Of a DNA stretch of 32,000 nucleotides, positions 7,301-21,125 are shown in pieces; position 1 is the first letter of the stretch, and each line of letters opens with the position of its first letter. The notes beneath the pieces were generated by a model. It saw only the letters and a list, made by a program, of their open reading frames with translations. It had not been told where the DNA came from and ran no database searches. This DNA is from Geotalea daltonii FRC-32 (GTDB taxonomy: Bacteria > Desulfobacterota > Desulfuromonadia > Geobacterales > Geobacteraceae): assembly GCF_000022265.1 (NCBI RefSeq), contig NC_011979.1, positions 3,630,001-3,662,000 of the forward strand, read 5' to 3'. The position numbers and the translations under genes were made by a program.

Positions 7301-8598
7301 GGATTGATGAACTCGTAGGCCATCCCTCCGGGATACCCATAGGAATCGTAACTGCCGAAACCGTAGACATAGATGCCGAAGGGGACACTCCCTGTGATGG
7401 TATGAGACCCGAGGCTGATGGGAACCTGCCCGCCGCTGAATCCGCTGGAGCCGACCGGGGAAAACAGCGCGGCATTGACCGGTGTGCCGTCAAGCAGCAG
7501 AGACGACACCGACGAGGTCGGGACCACGACATTGACATAATTCCTGCTGAACCCGCCGGACGGAGTGCTGAAGGTGTACTGGTTCAAGAACTGCTCAGTC
7601 GGTGGAATGAGCATCATGAAAGGGTCCGAGACCACACCATCGAAATCCTGTCCCGCAGAGTATTGGGACACCAGTACCGGCGCACTGGCCTCGATTTGGG
7701 AGCGAGCAGTCAAGATTTTCTCGAAAAATCTCCCGCGGTTGATCGTCGCAGCCAAGGCGCCATTGATGTACACCTTGGTGTCATCTTGGGAAGCAAGGAT
7801 CCTGTAGGGATCACCCTTCAAACGCGTCGCCAGGGGAACCGTCAGGAACGATTTTCCCCAGGTGGCGACCGGAGGCATCATTTCCACAATGTGGTCACAG
7901 GCCCAATAACCCACCGGAACGTTGACGCATTGCACACCGCTCATGACCGACACCGGTGCCGTCGCGGTCACAATGGTTCCGGTCAGGTCTGCGGTGCCGG
8001 AGCCGCGAACCTCATAGGTGTCGCCGCGATTGAGCCGGATGGTGTACGGGACCCCTGCCGCCCTGCCGTCGGCCGCATTCGAGGGAGTGATGGTGACTTC
8101 GGTATTATCATACGCCCCAACAACCGCAACCTGAGACGGCTCATACTGTATGTTTAAGCCGTTATAGCTCATGGCTATATACTCCAGCCCCAGAATGTCG
8201 GTCGGAAGAGCCAGGAAGGCATCGGTTGAAGCAGTCCTTTGATTGAGGGCGTATATGGTCACTTCCTTTTGCGCCGTCACGTGGATACCCAGCCTAGCAA
8301 CCACGTTGCTTCCCAACCGTTGCGCTGATTCTGGAATGCTGATGGTGGTAACCTGGTTTGCCACAACGGTGAAGGTGGTACTGAAATTTATGCCCGCTAT
8401 TTCAACGACACCCTGAGTATCCTCCTTGCCGGTTATGAACAGAGCAAGGTTGGAGGTATTGGTGTAGTTTTCCTGAAAGGCGAAATAGAAGTCTTTGCCT
8501 GAGCTGTCGGAAGCCGCCCGTGATGCCACCGGCATCGTCAACAGCAGGGCAAAAAACGCGCTGAAAAGAAATTTCAATGTATGTTGAGTGGCTCTCAT
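4342..8598 (-). CDS. Giant secreted protein 3 (1418 aa): IgGFc-binding-protein-N-terminal-like domain, acidic Ca-binding loop repeats, beta-sandwich (CARDB/MG-like) modules, and a possible GATase1-like module
   Basis: The ATG at 8598 overlaps the upstream stop (ATGA, 8595-8598). Sec signal: MRATQHTLKFLFSAFFALLLTMPVASRA|AS. Residues ~33-430 carry GKDFYFAFQEN, WACDHIVEMMPP..WGK, DPFMMLIPPTEQ and YVYGFGSYDSYGYPGG. Residues 457-507 hold four D/N-x-N-G-N-G-x-x-D loops. Residues ~1000-1200 (VLVWLD...YDYLILGD...GKGLI...GLGNVVFLGFD) resemble a class I glutamine-amidotransferase-like fold, which is a weak by-eye call. Confidence 0.85.
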   Translation of the reverse strand: MRATQHTLKFLFSAFFALLLTMPVASRAASDSSGKDFYFAFQENYTNTSNLALFITGKEDTQGVVEIAGINFSTTFTVVANQVTTISIPESAQRLGSNVVARLGIHVTAQKEVTIYALNQRTASTDAFLALPTDILGLEYIAMSYNGLNIQYEPSQVAVVGAYDNTEVTITPSNAADGRAAGVPYTIRLNRGDTYEVRGSGTADLTGTIVTATAPVSVMSGVQCVNVPVGYWACDHIVEMMPPVATWGKSFLTVPLATRLKGDPYRILASQDDTKVYINGALAATINRGRFFEKILTARSQIEASAPVLVSQYSAGQDFDGVVSDPFMMLIPPTEQFLNQYTFSTPSGGFSRNYVNVVVPTSSVSSLLLDGTPVNAALFSPVGSSGFSGGQVPISLGSHTITGSVPFGIYVYGFGSYDSYGYPGGMAYEFINPMGDTYAPNVRLNQINDTIWGTATDSEDINANGVLDAGEDLNGNGVVDRRSEDVNGNGKLDAGEDLNGNGYLDRDTGVFKIELEPGANNLKLTTLAFVPGALSVGFSVTLIDSALPGSGLLRVTDGVGNEVLSPITLSLVPTLTAVRIIDTVSTKDIQVDTNSFTKAPYSVTNLEDTTVIEWRYDSFPADLSTDIAFDVILKNPVPGEQRLVTHKVELLYNAVNGQPVRTELGSLLAQVLTSAFETAIATDKPSYGPNADALVSATVKNVGQYQRSVDVKILIEDAMGNVLGQETRPAVPFAVGTPQSFTVTYNTGTSYPGDYRAHLLLLDNGKQVGESFAPFKVTPERSATSNISSDKAAYVSYQPVVITSTIRSTSPNYVLQDLTARVTVTDSAGNKVFSDDKVIKTLLQGQSTDLRSDWNSGSHAKGKYMAQLEVSDASGLLTTSSTAFDILGTSATGVGVSGTITAQPSPVYQGLEEKIAYTVTNTGNEDLFNLALSIVIADAVTMEVKQTLPASITLPMGATSADNLTVSTAGLNVGTYAAFLKATLSGSSQTKTLARANFEVVVPVKPKLEVTKAVSGIGNVLVWLDYPWTSGQNCPERPPVERALREAGVLYTIVTDKKDFEREIRNQIYTDYLILGDQLPTEDHFSEELREQVNRGKGLISSPFTRNNLNEAMFGIKTIGVASGSDYLVELASSPISAAGSLQSYGRSIKVEAVNPAEVVGWITEVSNNKPTRYPAVIVRQYGLGNVVFLGFDLGMTSRNYDAFAQLLTNAFRHIHQPASTVSYGPGQMVPVELTVKSLADEFSLKISESYPAGVRLFDPASGQWITDNPWVYNLMLMPDEKKTMLYYAQLPVEKGEYTLESSISYSVDGIWDETGRYAVAPAISSDTAESIDIVRMQLANLYPLTNEENANVATALTAMSKVTIQASYTVIELDAIIHELLKAIGAMVDIHTVDTAPIRRELDKLLVSFSGRWYQKQ
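7078..7230 (-). repeat. Four tandem 12-13-residue acidic loop repeats (thrombospondin-type-3/EF-hand-like Ca-binding) inside giant protein 3
   Basis: The translated segment is DSEDINANGVLDAGEDLNGNGVVDRRSEDVNGNGKLDAGEDLNGNGYLDRD. This is not the RTX GGxGxD nonapeptide. Confidence 0.7.
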
Positions 8599-11500
8599 TT
8601 CAGCACCTCCCCCTTCAGATGGATGTTTATACGCAGACGCTTGTCGCCGTCAGGGGTCACCTTTGCAGGCGTCAACTGCTGTGTCGGTTCAATGTGGGTG
8701 CCCGGTGCCACCGTAACGGCTTCTCCGGTAAAAACCGCAGGCATCGGTCCGCTTTGCAGCGTCACCTGTACGGGATGCACACCGCTCTGCGTGAAGGTAA
8801 AGGGGAAGGTTTCCAGCTGCAGGGATTTACTCCCTTCGCCGGGCAGTACCGAAATGGTTCCGGTGCCGCTGTGCAGCACGCCTCCGCTTGGGCTCAGCCA
8901 CTGGTAGGCGACTGCCAGCTCGATGGGGACGTTCGAGCGGTTCACCAAGCTTGCCAGTAATGCTATCTGCTCGGTTGCGTTAAAGTTTGCAAAACGCGGC
9001 AGCGGCGTCAGGGTCAGGCTTGCCACCGCCTGGGTCGGAGCCACCGTGAAGAGAGTCGCGCCTTTGGCGGCAACCACCGTCCCGAAGCTTATGCCCGTTT
9101 CCCCTTCGGTGACTTTCAGCACCGCCCGATAAATGCCCGGTTGTCGGTTGCCGGTCTCCCATGGGATAGTGATCACCTTCGGAACCCCCGGTTCGAACCA
9201 TATCAGGGAATTCTGCACCCCGTTGTCATCGGCGGCCGTTGCCAGCAAATTATCCGTTACCTGCCCGTCGGCATCGAGTATGGTCACGCTCACGGTGCCA
9301 GCGATTGCCAGGGTGCCCATGTTAAGAACTTCCGCCTGTATGGAGACCGCTGAGTACGCGGGATAGCTCTGACTATCCGTTTTGAGCGAAGCTATGGACA
9401 AGGAGCTCGCCTGGCTGGGGTTCAGGGGGAAGTTCACCCGGTAGAATCCGTTGGCTGCCGAGGAGACGCTTTGCAACAGGGAGTCGTACCCGGTGACGCC
9501 GGCTCTCAATGAGAAGTCCAGCAGCGTAATACCGGAGATGCTGTAGGCGCCGTTACTGTCGGTTCTGGCAGAGAGGCTGGTACCCGCCACCGTCACCTCG
9601 GCGCCTTCAATCGGGTTGCCGGTCAAAAGGTCGCTGACCACACCGGCTACAGCCGAACTCTCCAGCAGGGGGGTAAGGTAGACGGTCTGGATGTTGGTAG
9701 TTATCCCTTCCACTACGATGACAGTGTAATTCAGGCTGACATGATCAGCTGCGGAAATGGTCACATAGCGTGCGCCGGGGACAACACGGCTGGCATGAAA
9801 GACCCCATCCGCATCGGTATTCACCGAGATTTCCCCAACCACAGTGATGGTCGCACCGGGGATGGGAAGATTGGTCATGGCATCTACCACAACACCGGTG
9901 AATTCCCCTGTGCTGCCTGCAGGGGGCAATTCCTTCAAGGCCCCATTGCTGACCAGCATCCCTCCTGCCTGCACCGTGCCGGTCCCCGTCTGCGGGTAAT
10001 ATCCCGCTTTGGTAATGGCAATGAACACAGGACCAGGTGTTGCCTGGGAAAAGGCATAGGAGCCGTCTGCCTGAGTGACGGTGCTCCCGCTAAAGGAGCC
10101 GCTGACTGTGACTGTTGCCCCCGAAAGCGGCAGATTGGTAGACCCGTCGGTGACGACACCCTTGATGAATCCGGTGGTAGCGCTGGAGGCAAGTGGCAGG
10201 CTGCCGAGATCGAGGATCACGCCGGCGATCATGTCGAGGGTCACGCGGCTCGTCATGTACCCGGAGAGGCTGAAATCAACGGTATGGCTACCGGGAGTAA
10301 CGTCCGGTAGCGAGAAGCCGCCTGCGCTGTCGGTGTTCACCACGACCGGGGGATCACCGGCCAAGGTCACGGTGACGCCGCTCAAGGGATGACTATCGAC
10401 CGCATCCACCACTCGTCCAATGAGAGTGCCGGTAGTTGGCTGGGCTGGTATCGCCTGCAGTTGAGTGTTCAGAGACAGAATCCATCCTGCCATGAGAGTT
10501 ACCGTACCTGTCGTGGGATAGTAGCCGTTCTTGACTACACTCAGGGTCCGGTCTCCTGTAATAAGTTCCGGAAAGAGGAAGCTGCCATCGGTTCCTGAAA
10601 TGCCTGTCAGGCCGGCTCCGTCGACCGTGATGGTCGCCCCTTCAATCGCCTTGCCGGTTGCCGCATCGGACACCGTCACTTTCAGCACGCCGGTGGTCGG
10701 GTTGGAAGAGAGAGGGAGCGTGCCGAGATCCAGGGAAAAACCGGCTGTGCTGGTGATCTTTGCGACAGCCGCCGAATATCCCGGCAGGGAAAAATCCACA
10801 GCCTGGTCACCGACCGGGATATTGCTCAACAGGAAACTGCCGGTGGCATCTGTTACGGTACGGACAGCCGAATCATTTTGCAGGGTCAGCACGACCCCAC
10901 TTAACGCTTCCTTCGTGGTGGCGTCCACCACCCTGCCGGTTATGGTACCTGTGTCCGGCTGAGGCGGTATCAGGACCAGCTGCGGAGTGAACAGCAGCAA
11001 GCCACCTGCGGAAATCGATCCACTCCCTGTAGCCTGGAAATATCCGGCTTTAGATGCAGTAACAGTCACGCTTCCGGGAGTGACCTCCGGAAAGAGGTAA
11101 GTCCCGTCAGCACCGGTTATGGCTGTGCCATTGAAGGAGCCGGTAACGGCAACGGTCACTCCTGCCAGCGCTTGCCCATCGGCGGCATTGGTGATGGTGC
11201 CTTTTATAACGGCCGACGTCGGATTCAGAGAGAGCGGCAGATCCCCGAGATTGAGCAGAGCTCCGGCTGCCACCTCTACGGCTGCGGTCCCTGAAGCATA
11301 CCCGGTTAAGGTCACCTCCAGCTGCTGACTCCCAGCCGGTATGGCCGTGAGAGTAAAACTACCTGAAGCGTCGGTGGTCGCTTTGATCGAGCCATTGCTG
11401 CCAAGAGTCACAACAGCGCCAGTCAGCGGCAGTTTGCTTGCTGCATCAACCACTTTTCCGGTCACGGTCCCGGTAGTCGGTTGCGGTGGAATCGCGGTCA

Positions 11501-14435
11501 AGCGGGCGTTCAGGTATAACACGCCGCCAACAGGCACAACCCCGGTCATGGATGCAGGATAAAAGCCACTCTTCGCCCCGGTTACGGTCAGCGCACCAGG
11601 TGAAACACCCGACACCGCAAAGCTGCCATCGGCTCCCGTAACCGTAGTGCCGCTGAAAACGCCGGTCATGGTTACTACTACCCCTGGTAGCGGCTGGTCG
11701 GTGGAGCCGTCGACCAGTACCCCTTTAACCGTGCTGGCGGTCGGGGTTAGCGAAAGAGTCACCACTCCCAGATTTACGGTAGATCCCCCCACAACGCCCA
11801 CCGCCGCACTGGTGGGGGCATAACCCGAGAGGGTAAAATTGAGCTTCTGGCCACCTTGCGGTATGCCCGACAAGGTAAACGTGCCGGTAGGATCGGTGGT
11901 CGCAGTGATCCCCGGATCGGCTTGCAGTGCCACAAAGGCACCCGACAGGGGCTGTTTCGTTGCTGCATCGAATACCTTACCAGTCACTGAACCGACCAAT
12001 GGCACGGAAACCGGCGTCTTCATCTGCGGATTGAAAAAGAGAACCTGTCCGGCCACCACGGTCCCGGTAGTGGCAACCTGCTCATATCCCGTCTTGGAGG
12101 CTGAAATGGTGACGCTTCCCGGGGAAACATTCCCGATCACGAATGCGCCATCGGTACCGGTCACTGCATTCCCCTGGTAGGCGCCGGTAACAGTCACGCT
12201 CACCCCCGATAGGGGAAGACCTGTTGCCGCGGCCGTCAAAGTTCCTTTGATAATGCCGGTTACAGGGTTTGGCGCCAGCTCCAGGGGGCCAAGGTCCGAA
12301 ATGGCTCCCGCCGTAACCGTCATCGTGCGGGTCAATTGCCCATAATCGTTCAGCGAGACGACAATAGACTGGGAACCCTGTGGGACATCGGCAAGAGTGA
12401 AAGAGCCATTAGAGGTCGACATTGCAGTAATGGCGGGATCGCTTGCCAACGTAACGCTCACGCCGGCAAGAGCCTGATGGGTAGTGGCATCGGTGACCGT
12501 TCCTGTGATGGTGCCTTTGGTCGTAGGGGGCGTTGGCGGCGGTCTCCTGGCGAAGTTGTATAATGCCTCCACCGCCAGTGCAGTCGTGTAAGGGTCCTGC
12601 AGCCATGATCCATCCTCCAACTGTGTCGAGGACAGGTAGCTGGCCGCCAAGCCCAGAATCGTCATATCCGTGATATCTCCGGACAACGCGCCATAAGCGA
12701 GAGCCGTTTCATATACTGTTGAAGGGGAACTACCGAAACCTCCATCCACGTTCTGATGGCTCAACAGGAATGTGGTCGCCTTCCTGATAACTGTCGCCAG
12801 GAGGCTGTTGGACGGCAGTCTTTGCAGCGTGGCCGAGACCTGGGCCGTTACCAGGACGGCACTGGCCGCGTCGGCATGGAAGCCCCACCCGCCGTCAGGA
12901 TTCTGCCTGGCAATAAGGAACGTTTTGCCGTTTTCAACGGCGATCCCAGTCGTATGCGCAGCCACGAGAGCCTTCAATGCCAGGGCGGTATCGACCGGAT
13001 TACTGGAATAGTTTCTGTCGCTTCCCCAACCACCATCCCCATTCTGTCGAGCAAGCAGTTCGGCAAGTAGTGTTGCGGGAATCTGTCCGGCATCCGCCAG
13101 CGCCGCAATTCTGGTGGCGAGATAATCAGTGTTACCGTTGCCATTGGCAGTCAGCCACTGCAAACCACGGGCTGCCGCCGATGTGCCGGTGGCGAAATTC
13201 CTCAGTACGGTCACGGCTTCCGAGGTCTCCCTTTCCGTAAGCCGGAGATCGGTGGCCCAACTGCCGTCCTCCTTCTGTGCAGCCACTAACCAGGCAGCAC
13301 CTTCATCGACATTTGCCGCTGCCGTGCGTTTGGTACCTTGTTCCGGGAAAAGCCCCGGATTGTCAGCCACCTCTTCAATCGGCGCCGGCGTTGCCGACAA
13401 AAGCGCAGCAGCATCGGTCAAGATTGAATATCTGGTTGCCACCCCCCGCAACAGGTTCTCCAGCGCATTGGTCTCATCACCCGTGAAACTCCCAGGGGTG
13501 GTAATAAAAATCACCGCCATGTTGAACTTCTTTTGCGACTGCGAAGCGGACGGTATCCGCTCACCCTCTACGGCAATGATATCGTCTATGGTGACATAAC
13601 GGGGGATGCCGCTGATGGTGGTCCCGGGCTTTGGAACCTGGTTGGCATCGATCGCAGGATTTTCGATCAACGTAATGGGGGGAACGCGCGACTTGTCGTA
13701 AATACCCATCAGGTAGAGATCGAGCGGGCTGAAGTATTTGCCCCCTTCTTGAGCGGTAAATGTCCCGTCTCCGTTATCATGCCAGGTGTTGCCGTAGAGG
13801 ACAGACCTTTGGGAATCTAGGAGAAAGCTCCAGTGGCTGCCGTCCTTACCGAGAAGGGCGCTACTGGTAGTGCCGTCGGCAGCCTTGAATTTTACCCGCG
13901 CCCCCCACCGATGCATCATTTCGTGGTTCATGATATAGAAGGTGTTCTCGAAATCGGGGCTGTAAGGGTCGGTAGCGATGTAAGCCAGGTTTCCCATGTC
14001 GATCGTCCCCTGGAGCCTGCCACCGCTGCCGAATAAGCTCGTATTGTCGAACAGTTCCTCGCCGATGCCGCGGGTATCGTTCTTCACCCCCATGTAAAAG
14101 GCCCGCGCCTCTGTCTCCGGCATCTTGAAGTCGAAGTTGCTGACAATCACCAGGAAGTCGTACTCATCCTTGTGGGTCTTGTAAAACTCCCTGGCAATTA
14201 CCGCCCTGGCGTCCGAATTGACTGTGCCATCGGTGTTTTTGGCGTCATAATTCCCGGTCACCTCCATGGCGGTCACGTTGCCGAAATCACCCAGCCATAC
14301 GGCATTGAAATCGTTTGCAAAGGTGTTGTCAGGGGGAATGAGCAAAGCGATCGCCGACAGCAAAAAGAGCATCAGGCCCTTCATTGCGAAGGCAAACCGA
14401 CGGTGCGACAGTATCAATGAGCGTTGCGGGTCCAT
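8595..14435 (-). CDS. Giant secreted protein 2 (1946 aa, cysteine-free): HExxH metallopeptidase-like N-domain, prenyltransferase/terpene-cyclase-like alpha/alpha repeats, 12 CarboxypepD_reg-like modules, CARDB-like C-terminus
   Basis: This is the track ORF 8595..14477 trimmed to the ATG at 14435, which has GGAGGG 3-4 nt upstream and clears the upstream stop at 14455. Signal: MKGLMLFLLSAIALLIPPDNTFA|ND. HEMMH lies at 13911-13925 (FYIMNHEMMHRWG). Five Q-x-x-DG(G/S)W(G) repeats occur (AQKEDGSWATD, RQNGDGGWGSD, RQNPDGGWGFH, HQNVDGGFGSS, TQLEDGSWLQD; about 12558-13301). A PPPTPPTT linker follows, then the repeat array (9414-12521). No Cys occurs after the signal peptide. Confidence 0.88.
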   Translation of the reverse strand: MDPQRSLILSHRRFAFAMKGLMLFLLSAIALLIPPDNTFANDFNAVWLGDFGNVTAMEVTGNYDAKNTDGTVNSDARAVIAREFYKTHKDEYDFLVIVSNFDFKMPETEARAFYMGVKNDTRGIGEELFDNTSLFGSGGRLQGTIDMGNLAYIATDPYSPDFENTFYIMNHEMMHRWGARVKFKAADGTTSSALLGKDGSHWSFLLDSQRSVLYGNTWHDNGDGTFTAQEGGKYFSPLDLYLMGIYDKSRVPPITLIENPAIDANQVPKPGTTISGIPRYVTIDDIIAVEGERIPSASQSQKKFNMAVIFITTPGSFTGDETNALENLLRGVATRYSILTDAAALLSATPAPIEEVADNPGLFPEQGTKRTAAANVDEGAAWLVAAQKEDGSWATDLRLTERETSEAVTVLRNFATGTSAAARGLQWLTANGNGNTDYLATRIAALADAGQIPATLLAELLARQNGDGGWGSDRNYSSNPVDTALALKALVAAHTTGIAVENGKTFLIARQNPDGGWGFHADAASAVLVTAQVSATLQRLPSNSLLATVIRKATTFLLSHQNVDGGFGSSPSTVYETALAYGALSGDITDMTILGLAASYLSSTQLEDGSWLQDPYTTALAVEALYNFARRPPPTPPTTKGTITGTVTDATTHQALAGVSVTLASDPAITAMSTSNGSFTLADVPQGSQSIVVSLNDYGQLTRTMTVTAGAISDLGPLELAPNPVTGIIKGTLTAAATGLPLSGVSVTVTGAYQGNAVTGTDGAFVIGNVSPGSVTISASKTGYEQVATTGTVVAGQVLFFNPQMKTPVSVPLVGSVTGKVFDAATKQPLSGAFVALQADPGITATTDPTGTFTLSGIPQGGQKLNFTLSGYAPTSAAVGVVGGSTVNLGVVTLSLTPTASTVKGVLVDGSTDQPLPGVVVTMTGVFSGTTVTGADGSFAVSGVSPGALTVTGAKSGFYPASMTGVVPVGGVLYLNARLTAIPPQPTTGTVTGKVVDAASKLPLTGAVVTLGSNGSIKATTDASGSFTLTAIPAGSQQLEVTLTGYASGTAAVEVAAGALLNLGDLPLSLNPTSAVIKGTITNAADGQALAGVTVAVTGSFNGTAITGADGTYLFPEVTPGSVTVTASKAGYFQATGSGSISAGGLLLFTPQLVLIPPQPDTGTITGRVVDATTKEALSGVVLTLQNDSAVRTVTDATGSFLLSNIPVGDQAVDFSLPGYSAAVAKITSTAGFSLDLGTLPLSSNPTTGVLKVTVSDAATGKAIEGATITVDGAGLTGISGTDGSFLFPELITGDRTLSVVKNGYYPTTGTVTLMAGWILSLNTQLQAIPAQPTTGTLIGRVVDAVDSHPLSGVTVTLAGDPPVVVNTDSAGGFSLPDVTPGSHTVDFSLSGYMTSRVTLDMIAGVILDLGSLPLASSATTGFIKGVVTDGSTNLPLSGATVTVSGSFSGSTVTQADGSYAFSQATPGPVFIAITKAGYYPQTGTGTVQAGGMLVSNGALKELPPAGSTGEFTGVVVDAMTNLPIPGATITVVGEISVNTDADGVFHASRVVPGARYVTISAADHVSLNYTVIVVEGITTNIQTVYLTPLLESSAVAGVVSDLLTGNPIEGAEVTVAGTSLSARTDSNGAYSISGITLLDFSLRAGVTGYDSLLQSVSSAANGFYRVNFPLNPSQASSLSIASLKTDSQSYPAYSAVSIQAEVLNMGTLAIAGTVSVTILDADGQVTDNLLATAADDNGVQNSLIWFEPGVPKVITIPWETGNRQPGIYRAVLKVTEGETGISFGTVVAAKGATLFTVAPTQAVASLTLTPLPRFANFNATEQIALLASLVNRSNVPIELAVAYQWLSPSGGVLHSGTGTISVLPGEGSKSLQLETFPFTFTQSGVHPVQVTLQSGPMPAVFTGEAVTVAPGTHIEPTQQLTPAKVTPDGDKRLRINIHLKGEVLK
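9414..12521 (-). repeat. Intragenic array of 12 CarboxypepD_reg-like beta-sandwich modules; the first 10 form five A/B di-domain super-repeats of about 174 aa (about 522 bp; 9918-12521)
   Basis: A-type modules begin TG(T/S)(I/V)TG(K/R)VVDA..K.PL(S/T)G. B-type modules begin TG.IKG.(V/I)TD...G.PL.GV.V.V.G.F.G..VTG.DG.F. A-type starts fall at ORF-track residues ~655, 829, 1002, 1177 and 1349. The copies are diverged, about 50% amino-acid identity by eye. Confidence 0.85.
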
Positions 14436-14454
14436 GTTCCCTCCACGACAGTGT

Positions 14455-14838
14455 CTATTTAACCGGCTGGGCCTCAACCGGGATGCTGAAGGTCCCTGTT
14501 GCCGTTAGCGGCCGGTGCTCACCGGATGTTTTGCGAATTTTTTCGATTCTCTGCACGCCGTTATCGAGGATCAGAAAAACTGTCTCCACCCCTTGGTCCG
14601 TTGTTTCCTCAACGACGATTTTTCCCTTGGTAATATCAGAGACTTTCGCCCCTTTTCCCAATTCGTCACCGATCTTTAGCAGGTGAAGTATGCCATCCGC
14701 AGACTTGACCGTAGCCAAACGGTCCTGGGCTGATATCTTCACGATCTTGATTGTTTTAAGCGATAGCGGAGCGGTTTCCTGCGCCAGCACAGGAAGGGGC
14801 AGTAGCACTAAAATCAGCAGCAAAATGCTTTTAATCAT
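14455..14838 (-). CDS. Small secreted protein (127 aa), function unknown; faint PilP/GspC-HR-like beta-domain pattern
   Basis: AAGGAG lies 9 nt upstream of the ATG. Signal: MIKSILLLILVLLPLPVLA|QE. The core ...KISAQDRLATVKSADGILHLLKIGDELGKGAKVSDITKGKIVVEE...ETVFLIL resembles the pattern 'A.v....G....l.vGd.l..ga.V..I....vvl' seen in PilP and GspC homology regions. This is a weak call. Confidence 0.75.
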   Translation of the reverse strand: MIKSILLLILVLLPLPVLAQETAPLSLKTIKIVKISAQDRLATVKSADGILHLLKIGDELGKGAKVSDITKGKIVVEETTDQGVETVFLILDNGVQRIEKIRKTSGEHRPLTATGTFSIPVEAQPVK

Positions 14839-14912
14839 TAACTAAACTCCTTGGTATCCTGTTCTTTAGGATGACGTTTAAGCCAAAACCATCTTAACAA
14901 GCAGCTTGTGAT

Positions 14913-15395
14913 TCAATTGTTGTCAACAGGTTTTCCGTTCATGGTCCAGACTGCTCCATAGCGTTTTTTCTGATAGTTTTCGTAGGAGTGGTTATAATCT
15001 CCCACGACCTTGTTCCCTTTGTACAAAAAATCGGCATGCATGTGAATCGGAGCGGTCCACTCCTTCCAATCGGTTGTGGAACGGACGTGCAAGGTAAGGC
15101 ACTGCTTTGCGTTGGGAGGCAGATCCCCTTTCCAGTGCAGATCACCATCGAGTAACTTCAATTCCGGCGGCAGAGATACTTTGATATTCACGTTGGATAA
15201 TGGCTCTACAAAGGAATTCAGACATAAGTCGAAACTATTTTCACTCCCTTTGTGAGCACCGAGACTGCCGGAATACCCCATATCGAACTTGATCATGATC
15301 TCATGGTCAGCCGGAGACCATCCTTCCTCATCGCAACCGGCCAAAGCTGAAACGCATATTAGAAGTACAATGATAAATTTCTTCGCAAAAACCAT
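14913..15395 (-). CDS. Lipoprotein B (160 aa), paralogue of 15506..15988; beta-sandwich-like, function unknown
   Basis: Starts at ATG 15395 (the track's GTG at 15398 is one codon upstream), with GAGGAG upstream. The lipobox is SALAG|CDEEG, with Asp at +2. About 70% identical to the upstream paralogue, sharing GCDEEGWSPADHE, NVNIKVSLPPELKL.DGDL.WKG and KQCLTLHVRSTT.WK.W. Confidence 0.88.
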   Translation of the reverse strand: MVFAKKFIIVLLICVSALAGCDEEGWSPADHEIMIKFDMGYSGSLGAHKGSENSFDLCLNSFVEPLSNVNIKVSLPPELKLLDGDLHWKGDLPPNAKQCLTLHVRSTTDWKEWTAPIHMHADFLYKGNKVVGDYNHSYENYQKKRYGAVWTMNGKPVDNN

Positions 15396-15403
15396 CACTC
15401 TCC

Positions 15404-15495
15404 TCAGTTCAAACAGAAAGACAGATCCAGGTTCTCATCCAGATCGGCCCTGCTCTGGAATACCTGGCCCGCAGCACCTATGACATGACGGCGTT
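15404..15495 (-). pseudogene. Relic of the last ~25-30 codons (plus stop and SD) of a giant-TGase-gene copy, left by tandem duplication
   Basis: The minus strand of 15404-15478 reads GAAGQVFQSRADLDENLDLSFCLN*. The true C-terminus of the 1709-aa gene (15996-16070) reads GSAGQVFQSRAKLNEDLDITFCLN*. Nucleotide identity is about 85% by eye. Upstream of 15478 the frame is broken by an indel and a TAG. Homology ends near 15496-15500, immediately after the stop of lipoprotein A. Confidence 0.75.
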
Positions 15496-15505
15496 TACAT
15501 CTTGT

Positions 15506-15988
15506 TCAGTCGTTTCTGATCTGTTTTCCGTTCATTGTCCAGACTGCTTCATTGCGGTTTTTCTGAGTGTCATCGTAGGACACGTTATAATTCCCCACAA
15601 CGTTGTTCCCCTTGTACAAAAACTCAGAATGCATATTAATCGGTGTGGACCAGTCCTTCCATTCGGTGGTGGAACGGACATGCAGGGTAAGACACTGCTT
15701 CGCGTAGGTAGGCATGTTGCCTTTCCAACGTAGATCCCCGTCGACTAACTTCAATTCTGGCGGCAATGAAACCTTAATGTTTACATTAGATAGCGGGTCG
15801 GCAAATGACATTAGGCATAAATCGAAACTGTATCCATTACCTTTGTGAGCGCCAACACCGCCGGAATACCCCATTTGGAATTTTGTCAACACTTCATGGT
15901 CAGCCGGAGACCATCCCTCCTCATCACAACCAGCCAGTAAGGTCAGGCCGACAATTAACACCATTATCCACTGCTTGATAAAAAACAC
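15506..15988 (-). CDS. Lipoprotein A (160 aa), paralogue of 14913..15395
   Basis: GTG start at 15988, 7 nt after the giant gene's TGA; that TGA is part of the SD context (AAC TGA GGAAAAG GTG). The lipobox is TLLAG|CDEEG, with Asp at +2. The rest aligns along its whole length with lipoprotein B. Confidence 0.88.
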   Translation of the reverse strand: MFFIKQWIMVLIVGLTLLAGCDEEGWSPADHEVLTKFQMGYSGGVGAHKGNGYSFDLCLMSFADPLSNVNIKVSLPPELKLVDGDLRWKGNMPTYAKQCLTLHVRSTTEWKDWSTPINMHSEFLYKGNNVVGNYNVSYDDTQKNRNEAVWTMNGKQIRND

Positions 15989-15995
15989 CTTTTCC

Positions 15996-18900
15996 TCAGT
16001 TCAAACAAAAAGTTATATCCAGGTCCTCATTCAACTTGGCCCTGCTCTGGAATACCTGCCCCGCACTTCCCAGGACGGCGTTTGAGCCAAAGCCAACCTG
16101 GAGTACAGCGGCCCTTTTTCCGAACAGATCATTCTGAAACCATTTCCAATCGTAGACGTCGGTTACCGTTCCGACGACATGCACACCGTTGATACATAAA
16201 TGTCCAGATTGATCTTCAAGATTGGCATTAATAGTGGTAAGTTCAACTGTTGCCGTCCCGTAGGCCAAGCCAAGATCGTTCAGAATAAACTTGCCGGCAA
16301 TACGTTCCCTGAAGTCTAAGGAAACTGCGTTAGCAAAAGTCGGATAAAGCTGGCCCGGATTAGCGTTAAACCAGGCAACCATTTTCGCCTTCTCGTTACG
16401 CAAAGTCGAATCTATCAACCCTCTGACACTAGGAGCATTGGCAATCTTGGCCATCATCTCCGGGCCTCTTGCTATGTTTTTGTCATAGACTAATTCCGGA
16501 ATGTCCGCCGAGCAGTCCGCCCTCAGGTAAGCCCCTGAATTAAGGTCAAGCTGTCCAGCCGCTAACGGGGCTGTACCTATCGGCCGTAATGGCTGGATCG
16601 GCGCATCAGCCCCCTCACCGATAAACTGCATCAGGAAGGAGGAACCCATCGGTTTTTCCAGTACGCCGGTGGCGCTAAGCAGGAAATAAAGACCCTGCAT
16701 CTCCAAGGGCATGGTCATTACCAGAGCAGCACACGCCGCGTCAGGCCTGGCGATACACTTGAGCCATTGCCTGCTCAGTTCAAAGTCAGCTTTCGAGATC
16801 ACCGTAACAGTAAAGGTGCGTACAATATTGTCACCGGAATCAAAGACGCCGTTGCCATTGATGTCGACACCGACAGATAGCTTATAATCCCGTGTCACGA
16901 GCGCGGAAATGTCGCTGAACGGATCGCCGGACGTGAAGCTTCCCGATTCGGGGAAGGCACTATTTGGAAACGCACTGAAACCCCAGACAAGTTCTGGAGC
17001 CGCACCAGGAGGATCGAGCTCCACGTGCATAGCCACTCGCGCTTTATTGGACGGATCGACGCCAATCACCAGGCTGTCCATCAATTTACCCGGCGCCTGG
17101 TTACAAGGGTTATTGGCATCGTAAGCTTTGACGGTGTTCACGCTGCTTAAAACAACTGGTTTCTTGTCGCCGCGAAGTTCTATGTCCCCCCATCCGTAAT
17201 TCAACACCACTGTTGCATCATAGCTGCTGTTGGTGTCATACCAGAAGCCTTTAGATAAAGTCGCGAAGCCGTTCCCGCTCACTTCCGTGGGGATTGACGC
17301 TATGGTCTCACCATTTTTGGTAATCACCACGTAGGCCGACCCAGCCTTATAGTCGGCAGGTTCAATGGAATAGGCAGCCTTCACGTCGTTGTACGAATAC
17401 CCCTTAATATCCAGGAAAGCCCGGGTTGGCGTTTTCGACACGATTTTGACACCGTATACCGGGATGTTTATGCCGGTGGTTGCTGTAAAATCGACGGTCT
17501 GAATGACATTGCACAATTGGCAAATGGAATAAGTCTTTCTCCCTGAGACGGTGGCCGTCGCCGAAACGGCTACATTGTTGAGCCCCGGAGCCAGGGTATA
17601 TAGCCCCCGGTAAAGCCCTCCCCCCAGGTTGACTCCCGGTTGTCCGCCGAAAGTCACCGTTGCCGATTTGAAATTGGTGTCTATCCGATACTGCCTGTTG
17701 CCGACGATTTTCGTGCAGGTCCTCGGACCGCTGCAATTAAGGGTTTCCAGAATCTCCTTTTCCCCTTCGCGCAAATAGAAAACTCTCGCCTTCAGGGGGA
17801 CGGCAGTACCTGCCTTACCGGCATATATGTTGTTTCCGGCGCTATCTACAGGTTTCGAATAGGTGACGTACAACATGTTGGCTGGCGGCTGATCTCCTCC
17901 ACAATTGCCGTAAGGCTCAGTGGACTGGGTGAATGTCTCTGTCAAATTTCCGGAAGTAACAATGACACTGTATGTGGCATCAGGGACCCCACCCAAAATC
18001 ATGTCGACCGACGCCCCTTGCTTGCTGCTGATATCCTGTAGAGTCATGGTTGGAGTTCCACATTGTCCCCATACCGGAAGATTGGCTGTACAGGTATCCC
18101 CCGTCTTAATCAGGTACCCTTGCCTGCTATCCTGGTTGGGGAGAGTGCAGGTCGAAAGGTTTGATCTGGCGGCCTGCAAGGCAAACTTCACCACACTGTT
18201 GGATATGGGGTTGTCGTACATATCTTCAACCATCACCGACAATGAGCCGGTGTGGGACAGGATCGGCCTGGTTATGTCGTCCCCCAAGGTCTTTTTCAGG
18301 TGGTGAGGGGTTTTGGGAAAGGCATAGGCGGTAAACGGCTTGGCAGTGGGAATTCCTGATGCCAGGGTGGCGTCGATTATGTTTTCGCCGATCTGCTGCG
18401 CGTAGGTATAGCCGTCCTCCCACCAGTAGGTCGGGTTCGCCCCGGTCTTCTCTCCCACAGTCGGGCTGACTGAGGCAATCCCGGCGCGGTTGGTATAGGT
18501 GGTGTAGGATCCTGAATTATAAGCCAGATGGCCCCCTCCTGCACGCACAGTGAAGGTTACGGGGGCATTTTGCACCGCTCTTCCCTGTTTATCGGTAACC
18601 CTTACCTGCAGCCACTTGGGCAGTCTCTCCCCGACCTTCACAAACTGCAAATCTCCTGTCATCTTCTGGATAAACAACGCTGCGTTTTGATCGGGATTGG
18701 GGGGCTCTGTAAAAGGGGTGGTCAGCATGCTCGCATAATAGGCGGGCCACCGGTCGATGCCCCACGCAGTCATCCCGCCGGCTATCATACCGCTTAACAT
18801 GTAGCCGGCCTCGCCGGTCGCAGGATTCTCTTTGATGTATCCGGTACCTGTCCAATCCTGAAAGGAGGTAGCAGCTGCGGGTATTCTTACCAGATAATTT

Positions 18901-21125
18901 TGGGCCACGCTCTGGGTTATATCGGCTTTAATTGCGTCGTCATATGAAAGCGTCGGAAGTACCGTATCGATATTGGTGGAGTCAATGGTCAGCACCTGGC
19001 CCCCCAGTTCTTGGAAAAGCCGCGCCGTCGATATTGCCCCGACCTGAAAATCATCCTCGAACAGCCTGTGCTCCAGCACCGACCCCTGCAGTGCGGAAAA
19101 GAGCATGAAATCCTTCCGTTTTGCCGCAGCAGAGTCGCCGGCGCCTTTTGCCGCTCCAGGATAGATCCGCCGCAGGGCTGCATCCAGGTATACCCCCTTC
19201 CAGGCGAAGCCATGGGGGGTATCGAGGATGTATGAGACATCGATCACGCCACCCAAAATGGCCACCGACGGTATGGGGCGTGCCATCGAGAGGTGCAACA
19301 GTGAAGAGAGTTGCTCCTCAGCTTCATACCAGCGACGGGCGTAGTTTTCCGCCTCCTCAAGCAGAATTCGTTCAGCGTCCACATCCTCCGGTTTGACTTC
19401 CGGCAGAGTGATGGTTTTCTGTGCAACAACAGAGAGCACCGACAGGTTTCCTACGATGTGATTGCCGCTGACAGTCTCGGTTCCACGTGGGCCGACCAGG
19501 GAAACAGTCACGGTGTAATCGCTTCCCATGGGTAGTCCGTCGGTCGCCACCACCATCCGCTCCCCATCCAGCTTCAACACCGGACGCAACCTCACCAGAT
19601 AACTCGGAGTGTTGTCGAGGCCGCCGTAGGAGCTTATTATCTGCTGGTCTTCGACGTTCTCCGGCTCATAGCTTAAAACCAGGCTGCGGTTGGAAACTTT
19701 GAAGGTATCGATAGTGGTTTCGAAAAGTTGCTTGCCATCCCGGTCCGCGGCGGTCACTTTCACCTTGTGGAGCAGCTCATCCGGAATGCTCGAAAGCTCC
19801 TGTGTCACTTTGATTTCTCGAAATTGCAAACTGGCTGGGAGGATTTTGAGCAGTTCCGGTGCGTGGGTCCGGACTCGCAGTAAATTGGCATAGACCAGTT
19901 CCGGATGATTGGTAGTCAAAAAGTCTTCGATTTTTGTTTGGAGAAATTCGACAGGGGTCTGCTGCGACGGCGCGGATAAATAAAGATCACGAGTATCGGC
20001 AAGGGAGATCTCGGGCATGAGATCCCTTGGCGCGTTCCACTGATAGTCGCCACCTTTGATACTCGTGTCCAGGGCGATCCAGGTCCGGCCGGCGCCATCC
20101 TTCATGGTGCCGCGGTAATTCAGATAGGGAACCTGAGTTTCTACCCAGACGTGCTCTATCTGAAAATTGTCTATTTTCGAGCCTGATATGAGCGGCCTGT
20201 ATGGAATCCCCGCATGCCTGAAAAAATTCGCGATCTCCAATGGGTCGTCGATTCCGGTCAAATTCTTCACCCGCTCCATGCCGGGAAAAAACTCTATCAC
20301 ACCTTTGACGTACCGAGCCGGATAACCGGAAGCCCTCAGCAGGGAAACAAGTAGTGCCGCCTGATCACAGTCATTGCCACTTTTCTGGCGCATGGTCTCC
20401 TCTGCGCCCTTCATGCTACCCCAGTACCACTCGGTTTCCACGTTGTTCTTTACCCACTCATAGATGCCGACCGGGTTCCAGTCCAACGATTGTGCCAGAG
20501 CCGCAATTTCCCTGGAAATCGGCGCCTCAGGGGAACCCTTCAGATCAGCGGCACCGACCGCAGTAGCTGCACCATTCCGGTAGGCCGGCAGTAGCGAGGG
20601 GGCATCCGTCGGCTCCACCGCAGGATAATTGATAACTTTGTACGGAAGGGTCCCGAGAATCTGTGTCTTTTTCTTGGGAAGCGAGGTATCGAGAAGCAGT
20701 TCAAGCCTGGCCGCAGCTGAGTCGCTGATCGCCTCGCCTGCCGGTATTTGCTCAAATATGGAGATGATTTCCCCTAGCGCTGCGCGGTAGCGCTCGTTCA
20801 TGGCGTTATGCCGCTCCACTGCAGTTGCAGATACCGATTTTGTCCGTTCCTCTGCCAGTCGGAACCGTTCCGACAGAATCAGGTCTACGGCCTTGATCTG
20901 CTGCAGCAGTTGTTTCAGTAACGCTGTCTCGGTAGCCGTATACCTGCCGGTTTCCCGCATCTTTTTGATGACGGCCCGGCTTTTTTCCGAGATTCCTTGC
21001 AGGTCCTCCTCGATATTGAAGTCCGCTGCGTAAATGAGCATTGGACTGAGAAGGCTGACCAGCAGAATGAGAAGCTGGAAAAAAGGCATGTTTACAGAGC
21101 CAAGGAAGCTGTTTATCGTTTTCAT
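15996..21125 (-). CDS. Giant secreted protein 1 (1709 aa) with transglutaminase-like cysteine-protease core, Big_1-like Ig modules and an unassigned ~320-aa C-terminal domain
   Basis: GAGGGA lies upstream of the ATG at 21125. Signal: ...FFQLLILLVSLLSPMLIYA|AD. The TGase core (about 20046-20513) shows GNDC(253)DQAALLVSLLRASGYPARYVKG, IEH(325)VWVE and IALD(353)TS; the Cys codon is at 20367-20369. Big_1-like segments include LQVRVTDKQGRAVQNAPVTFTVRAGGG and LSVMVEDMYDNPISNSVVKFAL. One DINGNGVFDSGDN loop is present. I cannot place the C-terminal ~320 aa in any family. Confidence 0.88.
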   Translation of the reverse strand: MKTINSFLGSVNMPFFQLLILLVSLLSPMLIYAADFNIEEDLQGISEKSRAVIKKMRETGRYTATETALLKQLLQQIKAVDLILSERFRLAEERTKSVSATAVERHNAMNERYRAALGEIISIFEQIPAGEAISDSAAARLELLLDTSLPKKKTQILGTLPYKVINYPAVEPTDAPSLLPAYRNGAATAVGAADLKGSPEAPISREIAALAQSLDWNPVGIYEWVKNNVETEWYWGSMKGAEETMRQKSGNDCDQAALLVSLLRASGYPARYVKGVIEFFPGMERVKNLTGIDDPLEIANFFRHAGIPYRPLISGSKIDNFQIEHVWVETQVPYLNYRGTMKDGAGRTWIALDTSIKGGDYQWNAPRDLMPEISLADTRDLYLSAPSQQTPVEFLQTKIEDFLTTNHPELVYANLLRVRTHAPELLKILPASLQFREIKVTQELSSIPDELLHKVKVTAADRDGKQLFETTIDTFKVSNRSLVLSYEPENVEDQQIISSYGGLDNTPSYLVRLRPVLKLDGERMVVATDGLPMGSDYTVTVSLVGPRGTETVSGNHIVGNLSVLSVVAQKTITLPEVKPEDVDAERILLEEAENYARRWYEAEEQLSSLLHLSMARPIPSVAILGGVIDVSYILDTPHGFAWKGVYLDAALRRIYPGAAKGAGDSAAAKRKDFMLFSALQGSVLEHRLFEDDFQVGAISTARLFQELGGQVLTIDSTNIDTVLPTLSYDDAIKADITQSVAQNYLVRIPAAATSFQDWTGTGYIKENPATGEAGYMLSGMIAGGMTAWGIDRWPAYYASMLTTPFTEPPNPDQNAALFIQKMTGDLQFVKVGERLPKWLQVRVTDKQGRAVQNAPVTFTVRAGGGHLAYNSGSYTTYTNRAGIASVSPTVGEKTGANPTYWWEDGYTYAQQIGENIIDATLASGIPTAKPFTAYAFPKTPHHLKKTLGDDITRPILSHTGSLSVMVEDMYDNPISNSVVKFALQAARSNLSTCTLPNQDSRQGYLIKTGDTCTANLPVWGQCGTPTMTLQDISSKQGASVDMILGGVPDATYSVIVTSGNLTETFTQSTEPYGNCGGDQPPANMLYVTYSKPVDSAGNNIYAGKAGTAVPLKARVFYLREGEKEILETLNCSGPRTCTKIVGNRQYRIDTNFKSATVTFGGQPGVNLGGGLYRGLYTLAPGLNNVAVSATATVSGRKTYSICQLCNVIQTVDFTATTGINIPVYGVKIVSKTPTRAFLDIKGYSYNDVKAAYSIEPADYKAGSAYVVITKNGETIASIPTEVSGNGFATLSKGFWYDTNSSYDATVVLNYGWGDIELRGDKKPVVLSSVNTVKAYDANNPCNQAPGKLMDSLVIGVDPSNKARVAMHVELDPPGAAPELVWGFSAFPNSAFPESGSFTSGDPFSDISALVTRDYKLSVGVDINGNGVFDSGDNIVRTFTVTVISKADFELSRQWLKCIARPDAACAALVMTMPLEMQGLYFLLSATGVLEKPMGSSFLMQFIGEGADAPIQPLRPIGTAPLAAGQLDLNSGAYLRADCSADIPELVYDKNIARGPEMMAKIANAPSVRGLIDSTLRNEKAKMVAWFNANPGQLYPTFANAVSLDFRERIAGKFILNDLGLAYGTATVELTTINANLEDQSGHLCINGVHVVGTVTDVYDWKWFQNDLFGKRAAVLQVGFGSNAVLGSAGQVFQSRAKLNEDLDITFCLN

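Follow-up and report, generated by a model that had tools for sequence, protein, structure and literature searches.

Why does a detached copy of the last codons of a very large gene lie between two small lipoprotein genes? The question is raised by a stretch of 32,000 nucleotides (nt) from contig NC_011979.1 of Geotalea daltonii FRC-32 (positions 3,630,001 to 3,662,000), called the window here and numbered from its first letter. The gene of a giant secreted protein of 1709 residues (15996-21125) is followed by lipoprotein gene B (15506-15988, 160 residues, GTG start) and by its paralogue, lipoprotein gene A (14913-15395, 160 residues counted from the ATG at 15395). Between the two lies a relic of the 3' tip of the giant gene (15404-15497). 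Every gene of the array region is on the minus strand in the list of open reading frames (ORFs), and all window features below are read on that strand. The explanation that we favour, and to which we give slightly better than an even chance, is that the spacer, a detached 3' end of the giant gene, belongs to an exchangeable orphan module made of the last ~30-55 codons and a lipoprotein gene, with the lipoprotein acting as a binding partner of the giant protein.

Anatomy of the repeated unit

The spacer translates as KRRHVIGAAGQVFQSRADLDENLDLSFCLN-stop, and the giant protein ends NAVLGSAGQVFQSRAKLNEDLDITFCLN-stop. A tblastn search of the window with the giant protein placed the relic at 15407-15484 (26 residues, 73% identity, E 3.3e-7). 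A repeat search of the window detected two direct repeats with the same spacing of 592-593 bp, one connecting the spacer to the end of the giant gene (15401-15484 and 15993-16076, 82% identical over 84 nt without gaps) and one connecting the lipoprotein genes (14930-15229 and 15523-15822, 79% identical). The first-pass annotation had described the spacer as a copy of the last codons of the giant gene and had defined the repeat unit as the giant-gene 3' tip plus a lipoprotein gene. The nucleotide identity and the tblastn score exclude a chance likeness, and the common period of the two direct-repeat families bears out the unit. Pairwise alignment of the two units with MAFFT upheld the homology of the spacer to the giant 3' end. 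It also confirmed the earlier observation that the spacer keeps its stop codon, followed by the TGA-GGAG start context of the next lipoprotein gene, which both copies have in common. At the active tip the TGA stop of the giant gene overlaps the GGAG ribosome-binding site of lipoprotein B. Adjacent paralogues on the same strand, a shared period, a junction with flanking sequence and 75-82% nucleotide identity across the unit identify the arrangement as a tandem duplication. Tandem Repeats Finder reported no repeat in the region because the period is beyond its limit and the copies are only ~75-80% alike. Two independent Logan assemblies from the same organism (L003 and L004) have the same arrangement as the window with 0 mismatches over 1401 nt, so the array is not an assembly artefact.

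The counterpart of the relic is the active 3' tip of the giant gene, consisting of the last ~33 codons and the stop (15996-16095). In the relic 26 codons are still in frame (IGAAGQVFQSRADLDENLDLSFCLN-stop), and lipoprotein A comes next, with its ribosome-binding site and start. Further 5' there is a 5-nt indel, and the MAFFT alignment extends the homology across it to AAACGCCGTC (15488-15497). The homology had earlier been said to end right at the stop of a lipoprotein gene; the homology stands, but the limits are corrected to 15404-15497, which is ~8 nt (15498-15505) short of the upstream lipoprotein stop. No in-frame ATG, GTG or TTG precedes the conserved part of the relic.

A terminal partial relic of 24 nt (14868-14891) lies just 3' of lipoprotein A. 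It is identical to 16072-16095 at 20/24 positions, a match equalled in 1/1000 dinucleotide shuffles, and copies the segment encoding GFGSNAVL. This segment comes next after a motif, DWKWFQNDLFGKRAAVLQ, that alignments of tips and relics show to be invariant among close relatives. The first 18 residues of DWKWFQNDLFGKRAAVLQVGFG (residues 1659-1680 of the giant protein, encoded at 16086-16151) are invariant in these alignments, and this sequence is the proposed recombination site, 'R'. The gene of a conserved secreted protein of 127 residues (14455-14838) forms the right-hand bound. The array is a repeated series of motif, tip and lipoprotein gene that is closed by a partial motif copy.

Lipoprotein genes A and B are 75% identical in nucleotide sequence with a synonymous divergence (dS) of about 1.0-1.2, which makes the duplication old. 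The ratio of nonsynonymous to synonymous divergence (dN/dS), which the first-pass annotation had named as a check, is 0.15, and both genes are under purifying selection. A plain tandem duplication is one account of these data. A single unequal crossover would have copied a lipoprotein gene and ~100 nt upstream of it, the relic would be a by-product kept for its ribosome-binding site, and the two lipoproteins would have sub-functionalised with no cassette exchange or tip specificity. The 592-593-bp period and the 75% identity of the paralogues fit this account, as does a spacer without a promoter, RNA family or stable RNA fold. Two of the loci described below also agree with it: in the related strain L001 the relic has decayed save for the last ~40 nt by the start codon, and L005 keeps only ~22 nt of the tip before a solitary lipoprotein gene. 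We consider this account unlikely, since a single in-place duplication accounts for the window alone and not for the divergent island, the divergence of the relics, the module types or the boundaries.

Orphan modules in related loci

Related loci (L001 to L017) came from scans of a collection and from look-ups of exact proteins; L005 and L006 were the only ones contributed by the genome and metagenome scans. L001 and L006 are identical sequences from two metagenomes and contain two lipoprotein genes with a decayed relic between them; the terminal remnant of the window is found again in L001. L002 encodes a giant of 1710 residues with one lipoprotein gene directly behind it. The order in L008 is giant tip, lipoprotein, relic spacer, second lipoprotein and a truncated third relic (IHDWKWFQDLFGRRAAVFQIGFGTNVLL-stop), which ends near the same point as the terminal remnant of the window. 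The L008 spacer of 185 nt contains an in-frame 52-codon relic (HNWKWFQNDLFGKRAAVLQIGYGTNSQLGTAGQVFRDRVDIDEDVDISFCFD-stop). In L009 a lipoprotein gene is followed by a 57-codon relic (ELYDGKWYQNDLFGKRAAVLQIGYGSTGVLGKAGQIFNSRVEIDEDLNLSFCF-stop), another lipoprotein gene, a lipoprotein-like gene and a homologue, of 128 residues, of the 127-residue protein. The relics in L008 and L009 start at motif DWKWFQNDLFGKRAAVLQ. Such same-motif boundaries in distant lineages are left unexplained by a plain duplication, and so are the 52-57 in-frame codons of these two relics. Behind working or orphan giant-gene ends the lipoprotein gene starts 8-9 nt past the stop in the window, L001, L002, L007 and L008, and 21 nt past it in L011.

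Longer orphan C-terminal fragments, whose existence in related genomes had been raised as a check, are present in two further lineages. In L007 (1-936) an ORF of 181 residues with a TTG start (197-742) corresponds to the last ~175 residues of the giant only, at 60% identity. An in-frame stop (182-184) lies just upstream of it, and a diverged lipoprotein gene follows 9 nt downstream. The 3' end of an unrelated gene precedes this orphan; its assignment as a transposase with a DnaA-type helix-turn-helix was dropped, as it had no Pfam support. Loci L011-13 carry a distant giant (37% identity) that ends ...DFCIN-stop and is followed by a lipoprotein gene. An ORF with homology to residues 669-719 of the giant overlaps the lipoprotein stop (L011:1891-2058, likewise where L012 and L013 end) and looks like a long 5'-truncated copy of the giant gene. 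The contigs end inside this orphan fragment, and its full extent lies beyond them. 

Solitary lipoprotein genes form a third class. L005, from a Geobacteraceae metagenome-assembled genome (JBGQLM010000031.1; 9974-10483), is a solitary A-type gene in an unrelated context that keeps ~22 nt of the end of the giant gene, TGTTTGTACTGAGGAGAGAGATG. In L014-16 a remote solitary lipoprotein is preceded by ...GKVFWDTIAMDQDINVSFCF-stop (L014:9913-9981, L015:5841-5909); the L014/L015 protein, P0011, has 33% identity and lies in a PdxA/UvrA/P-II neighbourhood. Additional solitary genes occur in L010 and L017. An rve integrase gene is located ~500 nt downstream of the lipoprotein in L015. 

Lipoprotein copy number varies between related loci, the other point that had been put forward for comparison: one gene in L002, two in the window, L001 and L008, and three in L009. 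Orphan modules, defined as 5'-truncated and startless giant-gene ends with the partner gene next, are found in the window, L001, L008 (two relics), L009, L014, L007 and L011. After the single lipoprotein gene of L002 there is a 137-nt spacer (L002:10484-10620), ~85 nt of which have no detectable similarity to the tip, relic or lipoprotein. A decayed second module was rejected for this spacer, as its local alignment was matched by 568/1000 shuffles, and its only likeness is to the conserved ribosome-binding region of the next gene.

Substitution patterns distinguish a relic that decayed in place from one with a coding history. In L008 the tip and relic differ at 0.50 per synonymous site (pS) and 0.07 per nonsynonymous site (pN), with dN/dS 0.09, and the flanking lipoprotein pair has pS 0.64 and pN 0.19. 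The L008 relic shows coding-type divergence and not neutral decay; neutral drift since an in-place duplication would give several-fold more nonsynonymous change. A plain duplication leaves this dN/dS unexplained at a pS near that of the lipoprotein pair. The window relic has 82% identity with the tips of both the window and L001 and 85% with that of L002, values that fall in the range found between functional tips (80-86%). Changes at its second codon positions number 1/15, 0/12 and 2/13 against the three tips, and the comparison with the L002 tip gives pS 0.44 and pN 0.10. With the L001 relic, which occupies the equivalent position, its identity is no more than 62%; a plain duplication does not explain this low value next to a likeness to the tips of other lineages that equals the likeness of functional tips to one another. 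For most of its history the L008 relic, and less clearly the window relic, was the coding end of a functional giant gene. Coding-type relics in L008 and the window against an evenly decayed relic in L001 mean that the relics differ in age.

A function of the relic where it now stands would be another explanation for retained codons. The relic could be translated, as a small peptide or as an extension of lipoprotein B by read-through, or it could act on lipoprotein A as a regulatory RNA or through translational coupling. In-frame conservation in the window, L008 and L009 is consistent with such a function, and in the window a single TGA separates the relic from lipoprotein B, whose frame it continues; a weak terminator-like hairpin (15445-15424) could be counted with these points. 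The missing start codon of the window relic has its equal in L008 and L009, where no in-frame start precedes the motif segment. The frame relative to the upstream gene varies, with two stops in L008, another frame in L009 and an early TAA in L001, and in L001 lipoprotein A is intact beside a relic from which the stop and most of the sequence are gone. A regulatory RNA was rejected for the spacer, which has no Rfam match, a fold z-score of -0.37 and no promoter on the gene strand. With no start, no consistent frame, no RNA signal and a degenerate L001 relic beside an intact lipoprotein A, an in-place function is very improbable. The hairpin itself lies inside the relic (15424-15445) and consists of GATCTGGATGAGAACCTGGATC and a T-poor tail; the equivalent segment of the active tip is not self-complementary, and the hairpin probably arose by chance.

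A divergent island and a proposed module exchange

The window and L001 are 96.5% identical over 13 kb aligned. Nearly all of the difference lies between about 16730 and 14940, where identity falls to 55-92% per 100 nt; the flanks are mostly 99-100% identical, with a few 100-nt windows at 96-98% and patches down to 90%. The island coincides with the final ~245 codons of the giant gene together with the relic and the two lipoprotein genes. Its left part is the strain-variable C-terminal region of the giant gene (residues ~1466-1709, 15996-16730), which is 72-91% identical to L001 per 100 nt. The L001 haplotype was confirmed by the independent metagenome L006 (100% over 1927 nt).

Synonymous differences per site between the window and L001 were calculated in 40-codon windows. 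The pS is 0.00 at giant residues 866-985 and 1426-1465, ranges in patches from 0.00 to 0.23 over residues 986-1425, and rises to 0.32-0.55 over residues 1466-1709. It is 0.51-0.56 in lipoprotein B, falls from 0.87 to 0.22 along lipoprotein A, and is 0.05 in the 127-residue gene, from which point the strains are near-identical again. At the protein level the giants are 100% identical over residues 866-1099 and 82-86% identical in the last 200 residues. This is a large secreted protein with a C-terminal end that diverges abruptly between near-identical strains, and the two ends are still homologous. The dN/dS is low throughout the island, for example 0.08 for the tips. Low dN/dS together with identical flanks identifies the island as an old alternative allele that was joined to the flanks by recombination, and not as a product of rapid local mutation. 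A plain duplication leaves unexplained why this island should be the only strongly divergent stretch between synonymously identical strains. The lipoprotein gene next to the giant gene sits inside the same island as the C-terminal end and co-varies with it, which makes its product a candidate partner; the L001 orthologue of lipoprotein B is P0002.

Smaller diverged patches are present inside the giant gene. Window positions 17433-17632 and 16933-17232 are 90-97% identical to L001, and pS is 0.15-0.23 at giant residues ~1066-1265 and 1306-1345. These patches may be further recombination tracts.

The modules fall into types. In a neighbour-joining tree of mature lipoproteins, the A genes of the window and L001 form a clade with 92% bootstrap support and the B genes of the two strains form a clade with 84%; the L002 and L005 genes join the A clade at 69%. 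The window relic and the working tip of L002 have GAAG and LDENLD in common, and the working tips of the window and L001 carry GSAG and (N/D)EDLD. The start context GAGGAGAG-N-GATGG is common to the window relic, L002 and L005, and GAGGAAAAG precedes the B genes. These shared letters are suggestive of an A-type module that is an orphan in the window and L001 and is expressed in L002. A plain duplication makes no provision for such types.

The favoured explanation, exchange of orphan modules, would proceed as follows. Within this small group of loci of Geobacteraceae type, modules lie head to tail behind the giant gene, each opening at the DNA for motif DWKWFQNDLFGKRAAVLQ. Motif copies would recombine, by homologous or unequal exchange, inside one genome or with another strain's DNA, and three outcomes could follow. 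A module could be duplicated; a module could be deleted with fusion of the orphan to the giant gene, giving a state like that of L002; or a module could be replaced, in which case the former pair of tip and lipoprotein gene would move downstream and become an orphan. The window would represent a giant gene with a B-type tip and lipoprotein B, with the A-type tip left as a relic before lipoprotein A, and the A-type tip would be the working end of the giant gene in L002. An array in this order is what such creation, deletion and replacement of modules by recombination at motif copies should produce. Exchange at the motif is inferred, and so is a specific partnership between the lipoprotein and the C-terminal region.

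The putative partner lipoprotein and comparison with known systems

The giant protein has an N-terminal signal peptide and a Transglut_core domain at residues 220-277 (Pfam E 1e-11). Matches to Big_1 and MG4 below the Pfam cut-offs point to Ig-like or macroglobulin-like domains. The C253/H325/D353 triad is seemingly intact, judged by eye against the known motif (GNDCDQ, EHVWVE, IALDTS). The recovered C-terminal regions (window, L001, L002, L007, L008, the L009 relic and L011) can all be aligned with one another. Two word-index searches with the C-terminal region of the giant returned only fragment P0005 and also missed the known giants of 1709 and 1710 residues, so the absence of long relatives cannot be inferred from them. 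Both lipoproteins have the lipobox LAGC with Asp at +2. Asp at +2 is an inner-membrane retention signal in enterobacteria, a rule that may not hold in this phylum. In its AlphaFold model lipoprotein B folds as an Ig-like beta sandwich, with a confidence (pLDDT) of 87. No Pfam or NCBIfam model was found for the lipoprotein family, which is tiny: it forms four 90%-identity clusters among 5.8 billion proteins, and an exhaustive profile search added 43 remote relatives.

The membrane-anchored Ig-like lipoprotein would bind specifically to the C-terminal region of the giant. Its part could be to neutralise, in the manner of an immunity protein, an effector domain that acts in the periplasm, or to serve as the matching anchor or receptor. 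Older lipoprotein genes would be retained for alleles that still circulate in the population and against which they protect or with which they match. 

A partnership outside conflict is another explanation. The C-terminal region could dock on the lipoprotein as a membrane anchor or assembly chaperone, with pressure from phages, predators or kin recognition and with the array as a switching reservoir resembling silent cassettes. Consistent with this are the operon, which also contains the genes of other secreted proteins of very large size (12 CarboxypepD_reg repeats, a TED/prenyltransferase-like toroid, IgGFc_binding), and the Ig-like fold of the lipoprotein, which resembles macroglobulin and TRAP-beta domains. 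The tips are homologous variants and not different domains, and conserved cysteines occur in the tip, the C-terminal region and the lipoprotein. Surplus anchors without a cognate tip should decay, yet purifying selection acts on both lipoprotein genes, and solitary lipoprotein genes persist without a giant gene on the available sequence in L005, L010 and L014-17. Persistence of solitary genes fits retained protection better than a structural partner, and the retention of several selected genes alongside them makes a putative immunity-like role a better fit than a structural anchor. We judge the surface-partner variant improbable; direct evidence favours neither conflict nor docking.

Several observations weigh against the module explanation or its effector form. 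The last ~260 residues of the giant match no toxin, enzyme or other family in Pfam or NCBIfam and have no sequence relative in the PDB, and the AlphaFold model of the last 262 residues, built on a 2-sequence alignment, has a pLDDT of 41 and is unusable. The fold search with lipoprotein B returned generic Ig-like PDB matches only (TRAP-beta, complement MG domains, CARDB). All known C-terminal regions and tips share homology, with 37-94% amino acid identity over matched stretches, and are not the unrelated domains of classical polymorphic toxins. The relics of the distant relatives L008, L009 and L014 hold only the last 22-57 in-frame codons and not a whole domain, so a swap at the motif alters ~30 residues. 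The L001 relic is 65% identical to its own tip, its substitutions are even over codon positions and its stop is lost, which means that at least some relics simply rot. The A-type call for the window relic rests on 25 codons, and the grouping of L002 with the A clade on 69% bootstrap. The sample amounts to about six independent lineages, most of them on short metagenomic contigs. Finally, more giant secreted proteins (HExxH/TED-like, IgGFc_binding) are encoded further along the operon, which suits a surface structure as much as a weapon.

These neighbours have features of their own. The giant and the proteins of 1960 and 1418 residues look like the products of one operon, which is conserved in L001 and L002. 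The 1960-residue secreted protein (8595-14477) has an HExxH motif near its N terminus (NHEMMHRWG), a TED/prenyltransferase-like alpha/alpha toroid with a sub-threshold match to complement TED, and 12 CarboxypepD_reg repeats; a partial match to the anammox Kustd1514 S-layer model is far below the cut-off. The 1418-residue protein (4342-8598) has a full-length IgGFc_binding domain (E 3e-80), and the start of its gene overlaps the stop of the 1960-residue gene by 4 nt (8595-8598).

The first-pass annotation had read the locus as carrying the signature of orphan toxin-tip/immunity arrays, as in CdiA-CT/CdiI and Rhs loci. The architecture agrees with that reading in its startless, motif-bounded relics, the small gene next to each and the divergent island. 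For a toxin domain, Pfam, NCBIfam and PDB gave no recognisable match in the C-terminal region. The likeness to CdiA-CT/CdiI and Rhs likewise holds for the genetics of orphan modules and fails for the hallmarks of contact-dependent growth inhibition (CDI) and Rhs systems, the tips being mutually homologous.

In orphan cdiA-CT/cdiI modules there are no signals for the start of translation, the first element is the VENN-encoding motif, and the homology of one orphan pair that was compared spans the stretch between its VENN sequence and the following one (Poole et al. 2011, PMC3150448). An orphan has become fused to cdiA through a deletion, and CdiA is near-identical between strains up to VENN and divergent past it (PMC3150448). 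Each of these four properties has a counterpart at this locus. As with CDI orphans (PMC3150448), the 3' end of the gene for a very large secreted protein is copied in startless, 5'-truncated form from a motif onwards, and each fragment is followed by a small co-varying gene in an array behind the full-length gene. Unlike CDI proteins, the giant has no two-partner secretion (TPS) domain, FHA repeats or VENN/DUF638 in a Pfam scan, which gave only Transglut_core, Big_1 and MG4, and no CdiB-like protein was found by Pfam among the other five proteins scanned. The part past the motif is ~30 residues here compared with a toxin of 200-300 residues in CDI. The tips here are all homologous variants and the partner is a secreted Ig-like lipoprotein; toxin and immunity roles are putative.

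As outlined for orphan rhs-CT/rhsI pairs (Koskiniemi et al. 2014, PMC3967940), a main gene is followed by 5'-truncated C-terminal fragments and small genes. Unlike Rhs proteins, the giant has no RHS/YD repeats or PxxxxDPxGL in Pfam and NCBIfam, and the window offers no type VI secretion context. Recombination at shared sequence reportedly brings an orphan into the expressed rhs gene. 

The domain order of the giant recalls another class, the Sec-dependent polymorphic toxins with an N-terminal inactive transglutaminase and then RHS repeats (Zhang et al. 2012, PMC3482391). In common with that class (PMC3482391) are the signal peptide, a transglutaminase fold near the N terminus, bacterial Ig domains in some cases, a variable C terminus and a downstream partner; Imm65 in the same study is a lipoprotein immunity family (Zhang et al. 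2012, PMC3482391). In the Zhang class the transglutaminase directly follows the signal peptide and has lost its catalytic residues (PMC3482391), whereas here it starts ~200 residues in and the triad looks intact. RHS repeats are missing here, unlike in the Zhang class, and the C-terminal region matches no Pfam Tox/Ntox family. Unrelated C-terminal domains on a common scaffold, as expected of a polymorphic toxin, were not found among the about six lineages. 

Silent-cassette variation of the Neisseria pilE/pilS type uses promoterless, in-frame partial copies that donate sequence to an expressed gene. By analogy, the partial copies here are kept in frame near the expressed gene and could donate to it by homologous recombination. 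Unlike pilE/pilS cassettes, each partial copy here is tied to its own intact, selected downstream gene, and no sign of frequent switching was obtained. The locus resembles an orphan-module system in its genetics and is not a member of the CDI or Rhs families.

A broader proposal, which we hold tentatively and at somewhat less than an even chance, is that the locus represents an undescribed polymorphic effector/partner system of Geobacteraceae-type bacteria, built on a Sec-exported giant with a transglutaminase domain. Its specificity for an Ig-like lipoprotein would be set by the last ~30-55 residues and switched by recombination at DWKWFQNDLFGKRAAVLQ via orphan cassettes, and the lipoproteins, in arrays and as solitary genes, would be periplasmic immunity or matching-receptor proteins. 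If so, the orphan-module logic of CDI, Rhs and Maf loci would reach a family with none of their components, in which the scaffold is a transglutaminase giant with a C-terminal domain lacking known relatives, and Ig-like lipoproteins are the cognate partners. The last 30-55 codons and one small gene would suffice as an exchangeable cassette, far shorter than the units of CDI and Rhs, and the locus would be a compact model for the co-evolution and shuffling of specificity pairs. Geobacteraceae are known for their aggregates and syntrophic contacts, and the system would be a hitherto unnoticed means of strain discrimination or competition among them. On a more modest reading, the locus is a clear natural case of motif-bounded recombination that leads to copy-number and allele variation within one species.

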